Notes: generated by a model not told the origin, from the sequence alone. A stretch of 64,000 nucleotides of DNA from Escherichia phage Ecwhy_1 (MH791411.1), one strand, 5' to 3'. Positions 11,526-47,190 are shown, counted from the stretch's first letter. Numbers and translations: made by a program.

Positions 11526-11560
11526 CAAAAAGGAGAGCAAATGCTCTCCTTTTCTTTTTT
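11526..11560. terminator. Bidirectional intrinsic terminator
   Basis: AAAAA-aggagagc-aaat-gctctcct-TTTCTTTTTT; perfect 8-bp stem with an A-run on one side and a T-run on the other, lying between the convergent giant gene (+) and the ClpA-like gene (-). Confidence 0.8.
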
Positions 11561-13847
11561 ACGCAATAACTTTTTCTACTGCTTTAGTGCGTTTAGGTTT
11601 GATAGCCAATTTACCATCAATCACATCAAACGTCACGTTACCACCATTAACTAGAGAACCACACAACATCTCTTTAGCTAGTGGAACACGGATGTTTTGC
11701 TCAATAGTGCGTTTCATTGGACGTGCACCCATCCCAACTTTAACACCATTTGTTGCCAACCACTCACGTGCCGCTTTAGTCAGGGAAACTTTAACTTTGC
11801 GGTCTTTGATTTGTTCATTCAGACTACCCATGAACTTATCAATGATGCTGTCAATCGCTTCGCTGCTTAGGTCTTTGAATGTCACAATACTATCGATACG
11901 GTTGATGAATTCAGGTGGCAAGAATGCTTTAATAGCTTTATCTTGTGCTGTATCACTACCGCTCATCCCAATACTACGCTTGGTTGAATCTGCTGCACCA
12001 AGGTTAGTCGTCATAATAACAGTTACGTTATTGAAGTAAACAGTTTTACCTTGTGAACCAGTCAAACGTCCTTCGTCCAGAACCTGTAGGAAGGTTAGTA
12101 GTACTTTACGATCAGCTTTTTCGATTTCATCAAGCAACAGTACTGCATTCGGGAACTGCTCAATCTTGTCGAGTAGCAGACCGTTACCAGAATCGTGACC
12201 AACATAGCCTGGAGGTGAACCAATCAGTTTAGCAACAGTATGTTCCTGTGAAAACTCGGACATATCGAAACGAATCAGTTCGGAACCAGTTGCATCAGCC
12301 AGTGCTTTGGTAATTTCAGTTTTACCAGTACCAGATGGACCAACAAACATGAATGCACCTTGAACACTTGATTTATCACGCAGACCAGCACGAGCTACCA
12401 TCACGTTATCAACCAGTTTCTGTACTGCTTCTTCTTGACCGTATACACGAGAACGGAGTGCATCTGGTAGATTACGCATACGTTCACTTTCAGTGCAAGC
12501 AACCACGTTAATATCTAGGTTTGCGATACCTGCAACAACTTCTTGAATCAGTGCAACAGTGATGATGTTATCATCAGTTTCACGAGAACGTACTTTCGCT
12601 GCTGCCGCATCCATTAGGTCGATTGCTTTGTCAGGGAAGTGTTTGTTCTTCAGGAACTTATCACTTAGTGTAATAACTGCATCCATTGCTTCAGTACTGA
12701 ACTCTACGTTATGGAAAGTTTCATAAGTAGATTTCAAACCATTCACAATCGCACGGGTTTCATCAATTGTTGGCTCAACTACATCAATTTTCATGAAACG
12801 GCGAGTTAGTGCACTATCTTTTTCGATGTTTTTACGATATTCATCGTAAGTTGTTGCACCGATTACACGAATCTCACCACGAGATAGTGCAGGTTTGAGC
12901 ATGTTGCTCATATCCATAGAACCGTTGCTTGCTGACCCAGCACCAACCATAATATGGATTTCATCGATGAACACAATAGTGTTTTCACGTTTCTTCAGTT
13001 CTTTTAGTAGGTTATCGATACGTTCTTCGAACTCACCACGGTACTTAGTACCAGCAGTCAGTGCACCTACGTTCAGAGACAGAATTTCAACATCTTTAAG
13101 ATGCTCTGGTACTTCACCATCAGCGATTGCCTGTGCTAGACCATCAATGATTTGAGTTTTACCAACACCAGCTTCACCAGTCAGGATGGCATTCTTCTTA
13201 GTCTTACGGGCCAGAGTTTCAATCAGTGCAGAAAGCTCTTTCTGGCGACCAATCATTGGGTCAAGTTTACCTTCTTTTGCAAGTGCGGTTAGGTTAGTGG
13301 TGTAATCTTCTAAACCTTTTTGTTTGGACGATGGTTGCTGTTGTGCCACTTTTTTCTCCCCAGTTGGCTCATCACTAATGCTTTGAAGGTTGATTCCGTT
13401 GTCGATTGCTTCTACGTGCTTCTGTAGAGTTCGTGCTGCTTCAGTACAAGTGATACCCTCTTCACGCAATGCTGCTTCTAGTGCAGTATTTGGGAAGGAC
13501 AAACACTCAAACAGTACAAAATAAGCATCAATTGAGAAATCATCACGTTTAAGTTGCTCAATTACTGATTTCTTAGAAAGTTCCTGAACTACACGGTTCA
13601 CGAGAAGTGATGTGCGGTTCGCTTCATCACCATCAGCACTTTTAGGTGCATGTGGGAATGTTGTATTCTTCAGATATGCAATCAAACGACCGTGTAGGTT
13701 GTCTGCATCGATGTTCATATCTTCAAATACTGCTTTGATGCTATCGATTGTCAGTACTGTAGCACTTAGATGGTCAATAGTCAAGAATGTATGACCCAGA
13801 GAAGTTGCCAGTTCGTCGCTTTTTTTGAATAATTGGGTAAGATTCAT
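11559..13847 (-). CDS. clpA: ClpA-type ATP-dependent protease ATP-binding (unfoldase) subunit homolog
   Basis: ClpA-like N-domain (MNLTQLFKKSDELATSLGHTFLTIDHL...). Two AAA+ modules with Walker A motifs GEAGVGKT and GPSGTGKT and sensor/arginine-finger regions. KRSIGMSGSD aligns with the E. coli ClpA ClpP-docking IGL loop. The start is the ATG at 13847, preceded by AGGAGA; the ORF track's GTG at 13871 lies inside the promoter/5'UTR. Confidence 0.85.
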   Translation of the reverse strand: MNLTQLFKKSDELATSLGHTFLTIDHLSATVLTIDSIKAVFEDMNIDADNLHGRLIAYLKNTTFPHAPKSADGDEANRTSLLVNRVVQELSKKSVIEQLKRDDFSIDAYFVLFECLSFPNTALEAALREEGITCTEAARTLQKHVEAIDNGINLQSISDEPTGEKKVAQQQPSSKQKGLEDYTTNLTALAKEGKLDPMIGRQKELSALIETLARKTKKNAILTGEAGVGKTQIIDGLAQAIADGEVPEHLKDVEILSLNVGALTAGTKYRGEFEERIDNLLKELKKRENTIVFIDEIHIMVGAGSASNGSMDMSNMLKPALSRGEIRVIGATTYDEYRKNIEKDSALTRRFMKIDVVEPTIDETRAIVNGLKSTYETFHNVEFSTEAMDAVITLSDKFLKNKHFPDKAIDLMDAAAAKVRSRETDDNIITVALIQEVVAGIANLDINVVACTESERMRNLPDALRSRVYGQEEAVQKLVDNVMVARAGLRDKSSVQGAFMFVGPSGTGKTEITKALADATGSELIRFDMSEFSQEHTVAKLIGSPPGYVGHDSGNGLLLDKIEQFPNAVLLLDEIEKADRKVLLTFLQVLDEGRLTGSQGKTVYFNNVTVIMTTNLGAADSTKRSIGMSGSDTAQDKAIKAFLPPEFINRIDSIVTFKDLSSEAIDSIIDKFMGSLNEQIKDRKVKVSLTKAAREWLATNGVKVGMGARPMKRTIEQNIRVPLAKEMLCGSLVNGGNVTFDVIDGKLAIKPKRTKAVEKVIA

Positions 13848-13885
13848 GTATTCTCCTAAATGAGTAGTCACTCTAATTAATAAAC

Positions 13886-13913
13886 ATTATATCACATTCT
13901 TTGCGTTTGTCAA
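13886..13913 (-). promoter_or_regulatory. Sigma70-consensus promoter, TTGACA-N16-TGaTATAAT, reading leftward
   Basis: Minus strand reads ccTTGTTGACAaacgcaaagaatgTGaTATAATg: perfect -35, 16-nt spacer, extended -10. Sits about 33 nt upstream of the ClpA ATG. The same 12-mer (cattatatcaca on the + strand) recurs at 43184 and 55526. Confidence 0.7.
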
Positions 13914-37678: not shown

Positions 37679-38605
37679 TACAGCCATTGGTGCTTTGATT
37701 GTTGGCATTGGATCGTAATTAACTAATTTGAAAGAATCCATAGTGAAATCTTCAATATCAGTAATAGTAGGATCTAGCCATAATTCTGGTAATGTACGTG
37801 GTTCACGTTGGAGTTGCTCTTTTACTTGTTCAATATGGTTTTGATAGATATGGCAGTCGCCACCATTCCAAATAAATTCACCAACATCTAACCCTGTAAT
37901 TTGTGCAATCATATGAGTTAGTAGTGAGTAACTACTAATATTAAATGGCACACCAAGGAATAGATCAGCACTACGTTGATGAAGAATACAACTTAGTTTA
38001 CCCTGTACAACACAAAACTGCACAAAGCTATGACAGGGTGGCAAAGTCATAGCATCAAGCTCACCAACGTTCCATGCACTTAGAATGTGACGACGACCGT
38101 ATGGATCAGTATTGATACCTTCAATAACTTGTTTTAGCTGGTCAGTTACACGACGCATAATAACACCATGTGAACCAGTATAATCAATAACTTTATACCC
38201 TTTATCTTTTAGTTCTTGAATTTCTTCAGTACTGGAACTGAATTTATAATCTTCCCATTCACGCCATTGTTTACCATAAACTGGGCCAAGCTCACCATCA
38301 GAATACCCAAGGCTTACACCTTGATTAAGGTAGTTGTCTGTCCAAATTGTTTTCTTTTCTACATCACGTGTCCCGTGTAAAATTTCACACAGACGACGCT
38401 CATCGTGAGAACCTTCAATAAACCATAACAATTCTGAAGTCATTGCTTTCCAAGCCAAACGTTTAGTAGTTACTGCTGGGAAACCTTCTTTTAGGTCAAA
38501 ACGCATTTGTTGTCCGATTAGCTTGATAGTGCCAACACCAGTACGATCAACGCTTTCGACACCTTGATCCAGAATTCTTTGATATAGTTCTTGTAGTTGT
38601 TTCAT
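37676..38605 (-). CDS. thyA: Thymidylate synthase (ThyA family, T4 td-like with insertion)
   Basis: Near-collinear with E. coli ThyA: DRTGVGTIKLIGQQMRFDL, VTTKRLAWK, ELLWFI, catalytic PCH, SAWNVGELD, LGVPFNISSYSLLTHMIAQ, GDCHIY, KAP. Contains an insertion of about 50 aa (…EDYKFSSSTEEIQELKDKGYKVIDY…) as in phage T4 td. Confidence 0.9.
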   Translation of the reverse strand: MKQLQELYQRILDQGVESVDRTGVGTIKLIGQQMRFDLKEGFPAVTTKRLAWKAMTSELLWFIEGSHDERRLCEILHGTRDVEKKTIWTDNYLNQGVSLGYSDGELGPVYGKQWREWEDYKFSSSTEEIQELKDKGYKVIDYTGSHGVIMRRVTDQLKQVIEGINTDPYGRRHILSAWNVGELDAMTLPPCHSFVQFCVVQGKLSCILHQRSADLFLGVPFNISSYSLLTHMIAQITGLDVGEFIWNGGDCHIYQNHIEQVKEQLQREPRTLPELWLDPTITDIEDFTMDSFKLVNYDPMPTIKAPMAV

Positions 38606-39198
38606 TTTACGTCCTTGAAAAATGTAATAAAGTGTTCCATGTGTTTTTGTGTAGCATTACGTGAACCAATCCCAGTCCAATTACCGTGTGGTGCTGGTAT
38701 TGAGAATGTTTCAGTAAACTCTTTCAGTACTGTATCATAATAAAATACAGAGCGAGTGTTCATATCATAACAATATATTTCTGGATTGTCAACTGAATCC
38801 ATATACATCTGTACGGCCCATGCAGTTCCACCTGAAACTTGCGTAGGTGATGTAATATTTGCAATACAATATACTCTTTTTGTATTAAGTATCTGGTAAC
38901 TATTCCTTGCAAGTAAGTTATATACATACGAACCAGGCTTAGGAACTTTACGGCGTAAAGAGTAACATGCAATGTTTAATTGTTTTAATATTGAACTATC
39001 ACAAAGGATATTGGGTGGAATTTCTAATATAGTATTTTCATCTACGCTGCTTTGGTGACCCTTGAATGAAAAATTTATTACTTCAAATCCATTGTCTTTT
39101 GCATAGATAGAAAAAAGGCGGTCAGCACCTGCTGCCCCGCCACTGAAACATACATTAGATAAACCATTGATTGCTTCATCTAATTCTATTTTATTCAT
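38602..39198 (-). CDS. DprA/Smf-like Rossmann-fold (SLOG superfamily) protein
   Basis: CFSGGAAGADRLFSIYAKDNGFEV matches the DprA (S)GxAxGIDxxAH glycine-rich loop. LARNSYQILNTKRVYCIANITSPTQVSGGTAWAVQMYMD matches the DprA FPxRNRIIxGLSxxVxVVEAxxxSGSLxTA segment. Stop overlaps the thyA start (ATGA). Confidence 0.55.
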   Translation of the reverse strand: MNKIELDEAINGLSNVCFSGGAAGADRLFSIYAKDNGFEVINFSFKGHQSSVDENTILEIPPNILCDSSILKQLNIACYSLRRKVPKPGSYVYNLLARNSYQILNTKRVYCIANITSPTQVSGGTAWAVQMYMDSVDNPEIYCYDMNTRSVFYYDTVLKEFTETFSIPAPHGNWTGIGSRNATQKHMEHFITFFKDVK

Positions 39199-39203
39199 TT
39201 ATA

Positions 39204-39857
39204 TTATTTTGCTTTACGTTCAGCAAATGCCTGTTTAACTTTCTCAATTGCTTTGGTTTGTGAAATTCCTTCTGGGATTTCAATATAGAAAGTTTTGCTA
39301 TCAGGTGCTACAGGTGTTGCTTGAACTTGTGGACGTAGAGATGGTTCTAAGTTGTAAGCACGTTCAAAGTGCTCTTTAGCCAACTGCTCATAACGTTGTG
39401 CATCTTTAAGTAGTTGCTCAACAATGGTAGCTTCTTCAACAGAAGTATCGACTTCTTGTGGCTTGAATGGGTTGTATTCTTTAACTTTACCATCTTCATG
39501 TTTTTTAGCATCATTATCATTGATTGCGTTGTTTAGAACATCAAGAGAAATCTTACTGTTTCCACCAACATGCATATCAATATCACAAGTACGTGCACGA
39601 CGCAAATGTTGTAGATTATGAAGAACATCTAGCATTTTGCGACCGTCTAGATGACCAATCTTATGCATAACTTCCCACAAATCTACATTCGATTGACCTT
39701 GATTCATTACTAAATCTGCAACAGATTGAGCATATGCTTCAGGAAGTGAGTCGCGATAAACAATGAGACAATGTTCTGGATCATCAGGGAGTGAACGCCA
39801 TACCACAAATACTCGTGAACCCGTATTACGTACTACACCAACGTGACGAATAGCCAT
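39204..39857 (-). CDS. Hypothetical protein (217 aa)
   Basis: ORF in the same leftward operon, 2 nt from the downstream gene and 2 nt from the upstream one. Charged coiled-coil-like C-terminal half. Confidence 0.55.
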   Translation of the reverse strand: MAIRHVGVVRNTGSRVFVVWRSLPDDPEHCLIVYRDSLPEAYAQSVADLVMNQGQSNVDLWEVMHKIGHLDGRKMLDVLHNLQHLRRARTCDIDMHVGGNSKISLDVLNNAINDNDAKKHEDGKVKEYNPFKPQEVDTSVEEATIVEQLLKDAQRYEQLAKEHFERAYNLEPSLRPQVQATPVAPDSKTFYIEIPEGISQTKAIEKVKQAFAERKAK

Positions 39858-39859
39858 TA

Positions 39860-40105
39860 TTATTCTCCTTTATTTTGTTCAGCAGCAGCTTGTGCAGCAT
39901 CAGCTTCTTCTTGTGCTTTGATATCTTCGAGTGCAGAGTTAGCAAACTCAACAAACTTAGATACGACTGGAGCAACATCAACAAGTTCTTCGACTTTAAA
40001 TGAATTACGAGCCACAGCAGCTTCCATGATTTTAGCAGCGTTGATTAGGTCGATTAGGGTTAGTTGAATTTTTTCTGGTTCTTGTTCCATTTTAATACTC
40101 TCCAT
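39860..40105 (-). CDS. Small acidic hypothetical protein (81 aa)
   Basis: The ORF-track start at 40189 overlaps the promoter. The ATG at 40105 (MESIKMEQEPEK...) sits 20-25 nt downstream of the TGaTATAAT -10 element. Acidic and Ala/Glu-rich. Confidence 0.5.
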   Translation of the reverse strand: MESIKMEQEPEKIQLTLIDLINAAKIMEAAVARNSFKVEELVDVAPVVSKFVEFANSALEDIKAQEEADAAQAAAEQNKGE

Positions 40106-40119
40106 GTATGTTGTTACAA

Positions 40120-40140
40120 ATATAATTATATCACCTTTTT
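40120..40140 (-). promoter_or_regulatory. Extended -10 promoter (TGaTATAAT) for the leftward DprA-like/thyA operon
   Basis: Minus strand reads aaaaaggTGaTATAATtatatttgtaacaacatacATG. No good -35, but the TGn extension is present. Located just downstream of the VWA-gene terminator. Confidence 0.5.
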
Positions 40141-40156
40141 CCAAGCTGTCCCGCTG

Positions 40157-40187
40157 AAAAAAGTAGAGAACGGAATTTTCCGTTCTC
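40157..40187 (-). terminator. Rho-independent terminator (minus strand)
   Basis: gagaacgg-aatttt-ccgttctc, 8-bp perfect stem. On the minus strand it is followed by TTTTTT; placed after the VWA/metallopeptidase gene stop at 40200. Confidence 0.75.
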
Positions 40188-40199
40188 ATTATTTAGTAC

Positions 40200-41609
40200 T
40201 TAGCTACGTTGACGCTTTTTGTCAGCTTCATATTCGTAGTGTACAGTTTCGCCAAATGGTGCTTGTTTGTTAGGATTACTGTGGATAACAAACAGTGTCT
40301 TACAGTAATCAGGATCACCCCATGACTGCCACGGCTCACCATCTGTAAACATAATAAGCTGTTTAGGCTTATAGTTGTCATGCTTCATATGAACCCATAC
40401 TGCTTCAAAGTCAGTACCACCACCACCTTTCACTGGATATTCGAGAATCTTACTCTCTTCACCAGTTTTGTAATCTTTCACAGTATAAACTTCAGTATCG
40501 AACGTCATGATACGGATTTTAAATTGTTTAAACTGCTTAGTGATACCCAGTACTTCACTGATGAAATCACGGAGCATATCTTCAGAGATAGAACCGGATG
40601 CATCTAGTGCAATTGCAATATCAATATCATCATCTGGTTTCATACCAGGGAAGATTGGATTCCCGTAGAATGAACCAGAACTACCAAAACCAGCACCCCA
40701 TGAACGACGATTAGGATTTTGATAAGTTGCATCAGACTTCAACCAGCTACGCAGTGTGCGGTGAAGTTTGGAACGCCAGTCAATCTTAGGTTCTTTGAAG
40801 TTGTTAATCATACGTGCGATTTCAGCAGGAGTACCACCTGCACGAGCAGCATTCATCATTGCTGTTTTGAAATCATCCATATAATCACGTTTTTGTTTAT
40901 CACTTGAACCACCTTCTTGACCTTCTTGTGGAACGTCATGCTGGTCGATTGTTGTACCTTTGCCTTTACCATCTTTGATATCACCAAAAGTACCGCGTGA
41001 TTTACCTTCACCCTCACCACTACCAGCCTGTGGATTTCCTTCACCTTCTCCGTCTTGATCCTGCTTATCTTCTTCTTCGAGAATGTTATAAATCTCTTCA
41101 GCAGTCATACCATCGTACTTTTTATCGTACAGCCATTGGCTTTGGATTTTACCAATTTTATCACGAACAAGAATCTGGTTAATTGCATAGTCAGCAGCAC
41201 GGTTATAACGCTGCGGGTCACGCATACCACGACGCAAGAAGTGGTCATATGCACAGTGAAGAATCTCATGACAGATAACTGCAATCAGGTTTTCATCGGT
41301 CAAACCTTCTGTCATTTCTTTAAGTTGTTCTTCAGTTACTTCAGGATGTTTCTCACGAATTGCTTCTTCGTATGCTGACTTTTTGGATTGGTCCTGAATA
41401 CCCATGATGAATTCTACGTTGTAGAATAAATGCTTACCATCTACAGCCAAAGTACGACACCATGTGTTGTTTGCAACTGGACGCAGACGAGAAGCCAGTA
41501 CACCAAAGAATGGGAATGTTAGCATTAAAGATGTGCGAGCTAAGATCAGACGATCTTGACATTCTTTCTGGAGAGCCGGAGTAACATCACTGAAACGTTT
41601 ATCTGACAT
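40200..41609 (-). CDS. VWA-domain protein with N-terminal HExxH metallopeptidase-like domain (DUF2201-type partner of a MoxR ATPase)
   Basis: Zinc-binding motif VICHEILHCAYDH in the N-terminal half. C-terminal von Willebrand A domain with MIDAS motif IALDASGSIS, and …ILEYPVKGGGGTDFEAV…IMFTDGE. Gly/Glu-rich acidic linker between the two domains. Confidence 0.8.
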   Translation of the reverse strand: MSDKRFSDVTPALQKECQDRLILARTSLMLTFPFFGVLASRLRPVANNTWCRTLAVDGKHLFYNVEFIMGIQDQSKKSAYEEAIREKHPEVTEEQLKEMTEGLTDENLIAVICHEILHCAYDHFLRRGMRDPQRYNRAADYAINQILVRDKIGKIQSQWLYDKKYDGMTAEEIYNILEEEDKQDQDGEGEGNPQAGSGEGEGKSRGTFGDIKDGKGKGTTIDQHDVPQEGQEGGSSDKQKRDYMDDFKTAMMNAARAGGTPAEIARMINNFKEPKIDWRSKLHRTLRSWLKSDATYQNPNRRSWGAGFGSSGSFYGNPIFPGMKPDDDIDIAIALDASGSISEDMLRDFISEVLGITKQFKQFKIRIMTFDTEVYTVKDYKTGEESKILEYPVKGGGGTDFEAVWVHMKHDNYKPKQLIMFTDGEPWQSWGDPDYCKTLFVIHSNPNKQAPFGETVHYEYEADKKRQRS

Positions 41610-41632
41610 TTGTATTTCCTCGTTTAGTTAAG

Positions 41633-41660
41633 ATAAAAGAAGGATACCATGTGGTATCCT
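41633..41660 (-). terminator. Intergenic hairpin/partial terminator between the MoxR and VWA genes
   Basis: aggatacca-tg-tggtatcct inverted repeat. On the minus strand it is followed by TCTTTTAT. Lies in the 75-nt gap between the MoxR stop (41685) and the VWA start (41609). Confidence 0.45.
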
Positions 41661-41684
41661 CCTTGTCAACACTCTTTTTAATTA

Positions 41685-43013
41685 TTAACCAAGAGAGCGT
41701 GCTTTACGTACTAGGTCAGAGTACTTCATAACGAAGTCTTTAAACGCTGGTACATCTTTAATCGTAATCGCTACTTTATGAAGCGTGATGGTACGAATCG
41801 CCAGTACTGCCAGTTCTGCTTGAGTTGCAGAGAAGTTATGGTCTAGGAAGGTGATGAAGTTGTTGCACAGCTTACCCCAATCTTCCACTGGTAGACGTTG
41901 TTCTTGCTTCTCATTGTAGAGGTCGATAATTTTGTAAACCAGATTCAGAGTGATGAAGTAGTTCGCGGAAATATCAAGCGAAGCATCAATCTCTTTAATC
42001 TCACCCTGTAGGATGGACATGGTATCTGGTAGTTTAGCTACGTTATCAACATACTCGATGTATTCAGTTGCTACGCCTTCACCAACACGACCTGCAATCA
42101 TCGCACGGAACACTTCTTTATCAATGTTCTTAACTTTCTTCAGATCTTCGTAGCGTGCTACTGCTTCCCATGAACGTGGAGAAGTACCACCACAGTGAGA
42201 AGGATCTTGTGGGCTAAGGGTGTTGAAGTGTTTAGCACCAGTGTTGTTGATGAACGCTACAGTTGCTGGGTTCAAACGCTTACCAATCGCATAATCGTTA
42301 ATCCAATCTTGATGATAAGGAATCATTTCGATGTGGGTCATACGGTCACGCAGTGGTGTAGCTAGAGAGAACGTTACACCGCCATCAGTTTCACGGTTAC
42401 CTGCTGCGAGAATCAGTGCAGTCTTAGGTAGCTTCATCTCACCAACACAACGGTCGAGGATTAGCTGATAAGACGCTGCCTGTACAATCGGCATTGCAGA
42501 GTTGATTTCGTCAAACAGAATAACACCTTTCCAATCTGGAGACAGTTTCAGTACTTTAGGTGCTGCCCACACAACTGCTGTTTCAGCGATGTAATCTTGT
42601 GCACTAGCCAGTTCAGATTCAATCAGTTGCTTACCATCCATATCAAGGAACACTTTCTCTGGAACTGGGATACCGCGAAGGTCACTTGGTTCAATCTGAG
42701 ACAAACGGAAATCGATAAAGTTAGTGTCTTGGTCGATTAGTTTGGCTTCAAACGCTGCCAGTTCACGGCGAAGTTGATCAGCATTTTCAGTATCAGCTTC
42801 GATTTGTTGTTTCATGAACTCAATTTTTGCCACGTTATCTTTACGCAGTGGGTAGTTCTCATCAGCGTATTGACGTGCGATAGCAGATTTACCGATACCA
42901 GGGCTACCCCAAATCATCAGGCTATCTTGAATCATGTCAGCCAGTGCCATTGCTTCTTTAGCTTTCTTAGGAGTCAGTTTTACGTTCAGGATATCGTTGT
43001 TTTGAGTAGACAT
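41685..43013 (-). CDS. MoxR/CobS-like AAA+ ATPase
   Basis: Walker A IWGSPGIGKSAI, Walker B VILFDEINSA, sensor region TALILAAGNRETDGG. A coiled-coil insertion of about 50 aa lies between Walker A and B (EFMKQQIEADTENADQLRRELAAFEAKL). Adjacent VWA partner. Confidence 0.8.
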   Translation of the reverse strand: MSTQNNDILNVKLTPKKAKEAMALADMIQDSLMIWGSPGIGKSAIARQYADENYPLRKDNVAKIEFMKQQIEADTENADQLRRELAAFEAKLIDQDTNFIDFRLSQIEPSDLRGIPVPEKVFLDMDGKQLIESELASAQDYIAETAVVWAAPKVLKLSPDWKGVILFDEINSAMPIVQAASYQLILDRCVGEMKLPKTALILAAGNRETDGGVTFSLATPLRDRMTHIEMIPYHQDWINDYAIGKRLNPATVAFINNTGAKHFNTLSPQDPSHCGGTSPRSWEAVARYEDLKKVKNIDKEVFRAMIAGRVGEGVATEYIEYVDNVAKLPDTMSILQGEIKEIDASLDISANYFITLNLVYKIIDLYNEKQEQRLPVEDWGKLCNNFITFLDHNFSATQAELAVLAIRTITLHKVAITIKDVPAFKDFVMKYSDLVRKARSLG

Positions 43014-43053
43014 GTATATTTTCCTTTTGTTGGATAAAATCGTTTAGGTTTCT

Positions 43054-43082
43054 ATTATAGCCAATCCGTGGGCAAAAGTAAA
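43054..43082 (-). promoter_or_regulatory. Proximal promoter P3 (TTTACT-N17-TATAAT) for the MoxR gene
   Basis: Minus strand reads cTTTACTtttgcccacggattggcTATAATagaaacc, about 40 nt upstream of the MoxR ATG. Confidence 0.4.
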
Positions 43083-43120
43083 GGAACTGTGTTAAAAGAA
43101 TTTTTAACTTATCAGTTCCT
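43081..43120 (-). promoter_or_regulatory. 5'-leader stem-loop
   Basis: ggaactg-(23 nt)-cagttcc inverted repeat in the leader transcribed from the upstream tandem promoters. Confidence 0.3.
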
Positions 43121-43178
43121 TTGTTACTTCATGAATCATCCGTGTATTTAAAAAGGCATTTCTCTTTGCCGTCTTGAT

Positions 43179-43222
43179 GTGGTCATTATATCACATCGTT
43201 CAGGCTTGTCAACAACTTTTTT
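43179..43222 (-). promoter_or_regulatory. Tandem promoter copy 1: TTGACA-N16-TGaTATAAT (minus strand)
   Basis: + strand gtggtcATTATAtcacatcgttcaggctTGTCAAcaactttttt. Reverse complement gives a perfect -35 and an extended -10 with 16-nt spacer. Confidence 0.7.
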
Positions 43223-43269
43223 ATTTCTTTTTCAATCTCACATCTTGTGATTTTGAAAACTTGCTTCGT

Positions 43270-43315
43270 GGTGGTCATTATAACACATCATTCGGCGTTG
43301 TCAACATCTTTTTTT
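43270..43315 (-). promoter_or_regulatory. Tandem promoter copy 2: TTGACA-N16-TGtTATAAT (minus strand)
   Basis: + strand gtggtcATTATAacacatcattcggcgtTGTCAAcatcttttttt. A direct repeat about 91 bp from copy 1 with the same architecture. Confidence 0.7.
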
Positions 43316-43329
43316 CTTTATTTTCGAAG

Positions 43330-46644: not shown

Positions 46645-47190
46645 TTAAGAAAGCATACGCAAAAGTTGTTCACGCTGCTCTGGACTTAATTTTTGTAGAG
46701 CATCAGGGATACTAGAACCTTGTGCTTTTGGCTGTTCCTGTGGTGCTGGTTGTGGAGCATTGTCAGGTTGAGCTTGTGGTGCAGGACGTTGTTGTTCTTC
46801 ACCTTTATCATCATCACGATAATCATTCATCAAGTCACGTGCTGCTGCCAATAGAGCAGAACCAACATCTTTAGGAGTAAAAGTACGACGACTGTTATTT
46901 CCCAGGTGTTTTATATCAAGGTTATTTCCTTTGAAGAATTGTGCAACATCAGCATATGGTACTGATGGCTGTGCTTTACCGTATTTGCGACCAACATAGC
47001 GTTTAAATTCAGCCCAAAGACGGTTTGCTTCTGCACCAACTTCTTGTGCACCTTGTTCTACTTGACCACTACCGAAAAAGCCTTTTACTTTTCCTTTTGC
47101 ACTATCTACTGCACTTTGTGAACGACTATATGGACGAGCTTCATTTAGCTCTTCATCATTATAGTCTAACATTTCATTAAGTATACTCAT
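46645..47190 (-). CDS. Hypothetical protein (181 aa) with Gln/Pro-rich low-complexity C-terminus
   Basis: QQRPAPQAQPDNAPQPAPQEQPKAQ tract. Start 3 nt after the upstream gene stop. Confidence 0.5.
   Translation of the reverse strand: MSILNEMLDYNDEELNEARPYSRSQSAVDSAKGKVKGFFGSGQVEQGAQEVGAEANRLWAEFKRYVGRKYGKAQPSVPYADVAQFFKGNNLDIKHLGNNSRRTFTPKDVGSALLAAARDLMNDYRDDDKGEEQQRPAPQAQPDNAPQPAPQEQPKAQGSSIPDALQKLSPEQREQLLRMLS

Follow-up and report, generated by a model that had tools for sequence, protein, structure and literature searches.

MoxR-class AAA+ ATPases are found in cells beside partner proteins with a VWA domain, and in the NorQ6:NorD1 complex a VWA finger is inserted in the pore of the ATPase ring, an architecture that has been proposed to apply generally to MoxR/VWA couples (PMC9976466). 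In phages, a MoxR-vWA chaperone pair with a fused metallopeptidase has been described in a group of jumbo phages, with virion assembly or processing as the proposed role (Iyer et al., 2021; PMC7824862), and gp24 and gp25 are among the 14 core genes of N4-like phages (PMC4193335). Here we analyse a stretch of 64,000 nucleotides from Escherichia phage Ecwhy_1 (MH791411.1), referred to as the window throughout, in which positions 40,200 to 43,315 carry such a pair: a MoxR-class ATPase gene with its promoters, followed by a gene for a predicted metallopeptidase/VWA protein. The pair corresponds to the N4 gp24 and gp25 families, and the novelty implied by a preliminary description of this locus, made from the sequence alone, was mistaken, since a description of the pair in this phage group had appeared in 2021. 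We did not find in the literature examined the larger gene cassette, the conserved intercistronic terminator, the separation of the operon from its neighbours by promoter class or the recurrent DNA and nucleotide-metabolism neighbours that are reported below. The account that we favour, with modest confidence and largely by analogy, is that a MoxR hexamer and its VWA/peptidase cofactor would remodel and cleave a client protein and would be made before the late genes.

By nucleotide identity the window belongs to an Asteriusvirus, one of the Rak2-like jumbo myophages, with a genome of about 350 kb: over a 3.4-kb region spanning the operon it shares 99.9% identity with Escherichia phages EC.P1 and fEgEco12 and about 87% with 121Q, PBECO4, G17 and phAPEC6.

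The ATPase and its predicted peptidase/VWA partner

The two genes and the elements of their products are as follows.

43013..41685, minus strand: MoxR-class AAA+ ATPase of 442 amino acids, N4 gp24-like (phrog_1297)
42723..42851, minus strand: clade-specific insert of the ATPase, residues ~55-97, a helical hairpin according to alignment A1 and the AlphaFold2 model
41609..40200, minus strand: protein of 469 amino acids with a predicted DUF2201_N zincin metallopeptidase domain and a VWA domain with metal-ion-dependent adhesion site (MIDAS), N4 gp25-like (phrog_1314)
41256..41270, minus strand: HEILH zinc site of the partner (H114, E115, H118), invariant in alignment A2
40590..40604, minus strand: MIDAS sequence DASGS of the partner (D336, S338, S340), completed by T399 and D423, with DxSxS conserved

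The ATPase has the core elements of AAA+ proteins, namely Walker A (GSPGIGKS, residues 36-43), Walker B (ILFDE, residues 165-169), a sensor-1 Asn and an Arg finger, and in an alignment of 49 family members (A1) the residues G36, G39, K42, S43, D168, E169, N206, R207, R224, P279 and R280 are invariant. MoxR proteins typically carry the signature R-x-Q-x-x-P-x-L-x-P-S-D-x-x-G after strand beta2 and an SPR sensor-2 motif in the lid; in the phage family, D101, R103, L104, D111, R113 and G114 within the segment FRLSQIEPSDLRG are invariant, as are P279 and R280 within the lid sequence SPRSW. The protein itself remains below the Pfam cut-offs (AAA_3, 17.9 bits against 27; AAA_5, 15.5 bits against 22) and an NCBIfam scan assigned no family, but at E<=0.001 shorter members among the 49 match AAA_5 (14), AAA_3 (12) and bpMoxR (9), and PF07728 and PF07726 matches are precomputed for homologues at 31-34% identity. 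Because these shorter homologues match AAA_5, AAA_3 and bpMoxR and the gene is tied to a VWA partner, we assign the ATPase to the MoxR class despite its subthreshold scores, and the nearest solved structures are those of the MoxR proteins CbbQ and NorQ. HMMER searches with both window proteins against PDB sequences, as single sequences and as profiles, gave only P-loop matches and weak integrin VWA matches.

Two inserts probably break the Pfam AAA_3 and AAA_5 matches. The first, of about 43 residues (~55-97), lies between the Walker A helix and strand beta2 and occurs only in the jumbo-phage clade, and a smaller one is located at residues ~120-145; relatives of 370-405 amino acids lack the first and part of the second. 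In an AlphaFold2 model, which has an alpha/beta core and a helical lid (mean predicted local distance difference test score, pLDDT, 86), the first insert forms two helices (57-73 and 75-91; pLDDT of the block 92-95), from which we model it as a helical hairpin specific to the jumbo-phage clade.

The partner matches DUF2201_N (PF13203) at 3e-36 (125.8 bits against a cut-off of 23.2) and the VWA-like DUF2201 at 1e-21, and members of its family show weak matches to Peptidase_M48, PhageMetallopep, DUF5700 and VWA_CoxE. H114, E115, H118, D336, S338, S340, T399 and D423 are invariant in an alignment of 43 sequences (A2), and the nearly invariant H123 completes the motif HExxHxxxxH; the VWA fold carries the complete MIDAS pattern (DxSxS...T...D). 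Across homologous loci, the N4-like and rV5-like clades included, HExxH is kept in 114 of 115 and DxSxS in all 112. On these sequence features the partner consists of a predicted zincin-type peptidase domain joined to a VWA domain whose MIDAS is complete. The label 'HNH endonuclease', which has been applied to this protein, is wrong, Pfam showing only DUF2201_N, DUF2201 and VWA; as the name of phrog_1314, it is an annotation error that PHROG-based pipelines have propagated into many GenBank records. Elsewhere the annotation is closer, with 'gp25-like' for the partner in Klebsiella phage K64-1 and 'N4 gp24-like' for the ATPase in LIT1.

The preliminary description thus had the essentials of both proteins. 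The phage origin and the 442-residue MoxR-type ATPase with its Walker motifs were borne out, as was the combination of HExxH and a VWA domain with intact MIDAS. Its coiled-coil insert of about 50 residues exists, with a length nearer 43 and a modelled helical-hairpin form. Its expectation of an AAA_5/CobS-like match held in part: AAA_5 is matched by the 14 shorter members and not by the window protein, and CobS itself was ruled out as an identity for the ATPase, which has no NCBIfam match, belongs to phrog_1297 and not to the CobS-like phrog_249, and has a DUF2201 partner and not CobT.

Distribution, linkage and genomic context of the pair

Of 50,697 phage records searched by tblastn, 724 have the partner and 808 the ATPase, with near-identical genus counts. 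Among the lineages with the pair are Vequintavirinae, N4-like podoviruses, Bacillus phage G and the jumbo phages of the Rak2-like and PA5oct-like kinds, and their hosts range from E. coli to Roseobacter, Agrobacterium and Bacillus. Linkage was surveyed in 80 IMG/VR loci and 22 usable genome loci, all fetched via the partner: 79 of the former and all of the latter have an ATPase homologue upstream and on the same strand, usually at a distance of 50-240 nucleotides. Other arrangements occur. In PA5oct (L004 5096-7857) a homing endonuclease gene and three small open reading frames (ORFs) are inserted between the two genes; the product annotated there as 'putative homing endonuclease' was considered as the partner and discarded, since tblastn places the partner at the gene that follows and shows the endonuclease to be inserted. 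In Vequintavirinae the two genes are 3.6-4 kb apart on opposite strands. A chromosomal copy, in Brucella pecoris, lies near DNA ligase and clamp genes in a replication module that looks like part of a prophage. On this distribution we regard the pair as a core-like module that several virulent phage lineages conserve, and not as part of a variable accessory island.

Outside the Rak2-like phages the pair usually stands beside genes of DNA or nucleotide metabolism, such as those for dCTP deaminase and ThyX in the N4-like phage IME11, thymidylate kinase and MazG in BIS47, and DNA polymerase, glutaredoxin, RNA ligase and ThyX in Atu_ph07. Virion proteins, among them tail sheath, tail tube, head closure and giant fibre-like ORFs, make up most of the coding content of the window.

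The cassette extends beyond the pair to two further conserved genes, g81 and g217.

39860..40105, minus strand: g81, small acidic protein of 81 amino acids with a net charge of -9 (phrog_13789), conserved cassette member
39204..39857, minus strand: g217, protein of 217 amino acids (phrog_15894; alignment A4), conserved cassette member

Homologues of g217 occur some 550-600 nucleotides downstream of the partner gene in 66 of the 80 IMG/VR loci (median tblastn E 5e-14), and every one of the 65 loci examined that carry g217 also has a g81 homologue. The 85 records of the g217 family among cultured phages all belong to the jumbo group; g217 has no Pfam match, and its family profile (A4) gave no match against PDB. 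A candidate promoter, GGGACA-16-TGaTATAAT, precedes g81 at 40152..40125. In the record of phage WPEC5 the g217 homologue is mislabelled 'thymidylate synthase'. A mass spectrometric analysis of phAPEC6 virions (gp265c, gp262c, gp259c; PMC7247149) listed thymidylate synthase as well as a 25-kDa protein, detected by one peptide, which is probably the g217 product.

In the window, the cassette is followed by ThyA and a DprA/SLOG-like gene. The latter (38602-39198, minus strand) encodes a 198-residue SLOG/DprA-like protein (phrog_768, with a weak YAcAr match), lies between g217 and the thymidylate synthase gene and shares a 4-nucleotide overlap with ThyA. Elsewhere in the window, 46645-47190 (minus strand) encodes a 181-residue protein of phrog_16152, whose label 'Hsp70 heat shock protein' looks doubtful, the protein having no Pfam match.

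Promoters, leader and terminators

The regulatory elements around the two genes are listed in the order of transcription; z scores give the stability of a hairpin relative to shuffled sequence.

43304..43277, minus strand: P1, perfect sigma70 promoter TTGACA-N16-TG-n-TATAAT, with an A-rich UP-like tract upstream
43212..43185, minus strand: P2, perfect sigma70 promoter TTGACA-N16-TGnTATAAT, with an A-rich tract upstream, inside a direct repeat with P1
43122..43073, minus strand: terminator-like leader stem-loop (arms 43122..43113 and 43089..43080), followed by ACUUUUG, between P2 and P3
43082..43054, minus strand: P3, candidate promoter TTTACT-17-TATAAT matching at 10 of 12 positions, a chance-level match quality
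41631..41664, minus strand: intercistronic hairpin with 12-bp stem and U-run, putative partial terminator or attenuator (z -4.0)
40187..40166, minus strand: intrinsic terminator with 9-bp stem, bidirectional, ending the two-gene unit (z -3.8)

P1 and P2 lie in a direct repeat of 55 nucleotides at 82% identity with a spacing of 92 nucleotides (copies 43179-43233 and 43271-43325). In Klebsiella phage KP13-7 P1 is also perfect and P2 is degenerate; in G17 P2 is perfect and P1 has one mismatch (TACAAT). P3 is identical in G17 and kept in part in KP13-7. Perfect sigma70 sites are rare by chance, with 0.19 expected in the window against the three observed. For a genome-wide scan we used the complete genome of TH47 (352 kb), a phage 99% identical to the window, which was assembled for this purpose; it has 28 perfect sites where 0.7 would be expected, and all are on a single strand. 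An early-type region at 47-206 kb accounts for 25 of them, placed before small ORFs, and the late region for three, two before the ATPase gene and one before a gene for a 770-residue ClpA/B-type AAA+ protein. These sites look like a phage-specific early promoter family. Many of the TH47 early-region promoters have AGTACTGTATAAT in common.

The only other perfect sigma70 promoter of the window (13913..13886) precedes the ClpA/ClpB-type double AAA+ gene (11559-13913, minus strand), whose 770-residue product matches AAA, AAA_lid_9, AAA_2 and ClpB_D2-small and belongs to phrog_4871. An extended motif, TTGACAA-N8-RATGTGWTATAATG, is common to P1, P2 and the promoter of this gene, and it occurs just once each in the IMG/VR genomes of 121Q and RaK2.

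The preliminary description had three stacked promoters driving the pair. P1 and P2 are indeed perfect, P3 is not distinguishable from a chance match, and the word 'driving' has to be qualified by the terminator-like hairpin (43122..43080) that stands between P1/P2 and the gene, and which that description had missed; the repeat that it gave as 45 bp is the 55-nucleotide imperfect repeat described above. 'Heavily promoted' is nevertheless a fair description, because the ATPase gene is the only one in the TH47 genome with two perfect sigma70 sites in tandem. The attenuator hairpin between the genes and the terminator after them were confirmed.

Promoter class also separates the operon from its late neighbours, as far as motif analysis can tell. 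The motif ATAAATA occurs ten times in the window, eight of them 1-51 nucleotides upstream of structural ORFs, and a scan of the window found no copy before the ATPase, partner, g81, g217 and ThyA genes. It matches the late motif proposed for phages CBB and GAP32. A T4-type late promoter was considered for the late genes and rejected, the octamer TATAAATA being absent from the whole window (0 against 7 expected), with the shorter ATAAATA marking late genes instead. In CBB, RpoD-like promoters have been assigned to early genes, TGAAACG-type promoters precede DNA-synthesis genes and ATAAATA is the late class (PMC5259590); the CBB ATPase gene is preceded by TGAAACG-N16-TATAAT. N4 gp24 and gp25 are middle transcripts (PMC4193335). 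Given the promoter class in the window phage, in CBB and in N4, it is plausible that the operon is expressed before the late genes, in the window phage through the host sigma70 RNA polymerase.

The intercistronic hairpin and its T-run span 41664..41637. A terminator is found at the same position, with different stem sequences, in Asteriusvirus, Alcyoneusvirus, Mimasvirus and two further genomes; the relatives with this element, among them G17, KP13-7 and CBB, represent at least four genera. G17 is also annotated with a terminator at the site equivalent to 40187..40166. By analogy with the cellular couples, the conserved intercistronic terminator fits an excess of ATPase over partner, such as 6:1.

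Proposed function and alternatives

From the domains identified, their conserved motifs, the linkage of the genes, the layout of promoters and terminators and the genomic context, all of them observed, we infer a complex, its stoichiometry, its proteolytic activity, the timing of its expression and a type of client, as follows. Host sigma70 RNA polymerase would transcribe the operon ahead of the late structural genes, and the intercistronic terminator would pass only part of the transcripts, giving more ATPase than partner. One partner molecule would dock on an ATPase hexamer, its VWA MIDAS capturing a carboxylate on the client protein; ATP hydrolysis by the ring would remodel the client and the HExxHxxxxH domain would cleave it, so that the pair would act as a split, substrate-specific ATP-dependent protease or maturation machine. 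The likeliest client would be a phage or host protein handled in the DNA and nucleotide-metabolism phase of infection, and g81 and g217 could serve as adaptors or substrates.

Several observations weigh against this account. Structure searches with the partner matched the VWA domain only and gave no zincin-fold match for the peptidase domain. The sole exception to HExxH among the 115 loci, the partner of Agrobacterium phage Atu_ph07 (ASV44728.2; L152 6254-7543), has HQILH with the catalytic Glu replaced, and catalysis may on this evidence be dispensable in at least one lineage. The function of N4 gp24/gp25 has been given as 'Unknown' (PMC2784036), and in the literature we found no experimental or functional study of any family member. 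The output of P1 and P2 that reaches the ATPase gene is uncertain, because of the conserved terminator-like hairpin in between. In the window phage, moreover, the operon adjoins virion genes on its upstream side, and orthologues of the ATPase have been detected in purified virions of phAPEC6 (gp265c; 6 peptides, 19% coverage; PMC7247149) and flagged by electrospray ionisation tandem mass spectrometry in PA5oct (gp335).

The last of these points favour the function that Iyer et al. (2021) proposed for this jumbo-phage group (PMC7824862), in which the pair is a chaperone/protease that folds or assembles virion parts and processes structural proteins. MoxR/vWA proteins are needed for tail development of Acidianus two-tailed virus, and in Rak2-like phages the operon lies directly 3' of virion-protein genes. 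The mass spectrometric detection itself could reflect either packaging or carry-over of abundant proteins; carry-over is likely, because the virion lists also include thymidylate synthase, single-stranded DNA-binding protein and RNase H, and the peptidase/VWA partner is missing from the phAPEC6 list. Promoters of the sigma70 or middle type, and not the late ATAAATA of the neighbouring structural genes, precede the operon, and N4 gp24/gp25 are middle genes. The pair is further shared by podoviruses and myoviruses with unrelated tails, and outside the Rak2-like phages its neighbours are replication or nucleotide-metabolism genes. With promoter and context data both pointing away from it, the published proposal is not favoured here, and we hold it to be unlikely, while giving it some weight.

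A second alternative concerns regulation and follows from the leader. P1 and P2 might mainly yield a short leader RNA, ending at the hairpin at 43122..43080, and the operon would then be transcribed from the weaker P3 or by regulated read-through. Located between P2 and the gene, the hairpin (fold z -3.4) shows conservation across genera: it is kept in KP13-7 and in G17, where it is annotated as a terminator, and takes the form of a canonical terminator in CBB; the identity of the leader between the window and G17 is also above the regional average of 87%. Its U-tract is interrupted (ACUUUUG), however, and its loop region is long. At gathering thresholds, an Rfam scan of the whole window had no match, and the matches to the leader were all at chance level. 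In CBB, read-through must occur because no promoter is evident downstream of the leader hairpin. A mini-ORF upstream of the leader hairpin was dropped as a candidate element since it is not conserved in KP13-7. Overall, we think a mainly leader-producing role of P1 and P2 unlikely.

The preliminary description read the pair as an early device for host takeover or counter-defence, in which the machine would remodel or cleave a host defence, replication or transcription factor soon after infection. Consensus sigma70 promoters resembling those of the early region would suit this, the other late-region gene with the same promoter subtype encodes the ClpA/B-type AAA+ protein, and cellular conflict systems do include MoxR-vWA modules (PMC7159879). 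PADLOC has no model that matches either protein, however; there is no VMAP or effector as third gene, the neighbours being g81, g217, the SLOG/DprA-like gene and ThyA; the module shows core-like conservation across hosts, unlike fast-turnover anti-defence genes; and the operon lies outside the early region of small genes. Expression by host sigma70 before the late genes is the part of that claim that stays plausible, and the takeover or counter-defence function, which we consider improbable, is unsupported. The preliminary description was right on architecture and regulation and unsupported on function, and the observation on which it was built is well above chance. Least probable is a chaperone for metal-cofactor insertion or enzyme activation in the manner of CobST, BchID, NorQD or CbbQO, acting on a phage metabolic enzyme, for instance of nucleotide metabolism: the nearest solved relatives, CbbQ and NorQ, are such enzyme activators or metal-insertion chaperones and genes for thymidylate synthase, dCTP deaminase and glutaredoxin are recurrent neighbours, but the near-invariant HExxHxxxxH fused to the VWA domain has no counterpart in such chaperones, the ATPase is not in the CobS-like phage family phrog_249, and no specific client enzyme co-occurs in all lineages.

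Returning to an ATPase ring with a peptidase/VWA cofactor, we can frame a more specific version, which we offer tentatively and judge to be rather unlikely in its full form. The ATPase, the peptidase/VWA protein, g81 and g217 would form a four-protein system, a phage-specific ATP-dependent protease made before the late phase, Wss1/Cdc48-like or FtsH-like, and acting on a client that belongs to the DNA-replication stage or is bound to DNA. Its output would be tuned by the conserved promoter-leader-terminator switch together with the intercistronic attenuator. If true, this would supply N4 gp24/gp25, which belong to the core gene set of N4-like phages, with a function. The pair is among the more widespread phage modules: over 700 sequenced phages have it, it is part of the core in N4-like viruses, and it is also found in rV5-like and Rak2-like jumbo phages that are employed in therapy work. 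To identify the client would close a gap in the picture of how large virulent phages arrange the middle of infection, and the regulatory anatomy and the two co-inherited genes provide concrete handles for experiments.

Comparison with known systems

The proteases FtsH and Wss1/SPRTN-Cdc48 resemble the proposed machine in coupling an AAA+ ring to a HExxH zincin protease, and the comparison is one of analogy only. FtsH is a single membrane-anchored chain, and to our knowledge the peptidase domain of the partner has no detectable homology to FtsH or Wss1/SPRTN proteases.

The vWA-MoxR ternary conflict systems (Kaur et al., 2020) have the MoxR and vWA core in common with the window pair, and some of the shorter homologues of the ATPase weakly match bpMoxR. 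They differ in that the window pair has no VMAP or iSTAND third component, no effector array and no PADLOC match, and is phage-borne and conserved and not diversifying.

Closer in their logic are the cellular couples CbbQ/CbbO and NorQ/NorD, and also RavA/ViaA and CoxD/CoxE, in which a MoxR ATPase is accompanied by an adjacent VWA partner with a MIDAS; the hexamer:monomer arrangement of CbbQ/CbbO and NorQ/NorD fits the conserved intercistronic attenuator of the phage operon. The partners in these cellular couples lack a peptidase domain and their clients are defined metabolic enzymes, and sequence similarity is too low for HMMER to detect against PDB.

Among phages, the N4-like viruses (Schitoviridae) match in both families, and tblastn from both window proteins reaches their genomes. 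They have the same gene order, both HExxHxxxxH and MIDAS, and thymidylate-synthase and dCTP-deaminase genes nearby. Identity is only about 25-30%, their ATPases of about 350 amino acids lack the helical-hairpin insert, and the g81 and g217 partners are absent. In N4 itself, gp24/gp25 are transcribed by N4 RNA polymerase II as middle genes and not from sigma70 promoters.

The genus to which the window belongs is part of the 'group 2.2' jumbo phages of Iyer et al. (2021), and it is with this group that the comparison is closest. The Atu_ph07 exemplars differ from the window pair in an ATPase without the insert, a partner with HQxxH in place of HExxH and a distance of about 7 kb between the pair and the g217 homologue; in other respects ASV44729.1 and ASV44728.2 have the same architecture as the window proteins and are homologous to them over their full length (E 5e-51 and 6e-65, respectively).

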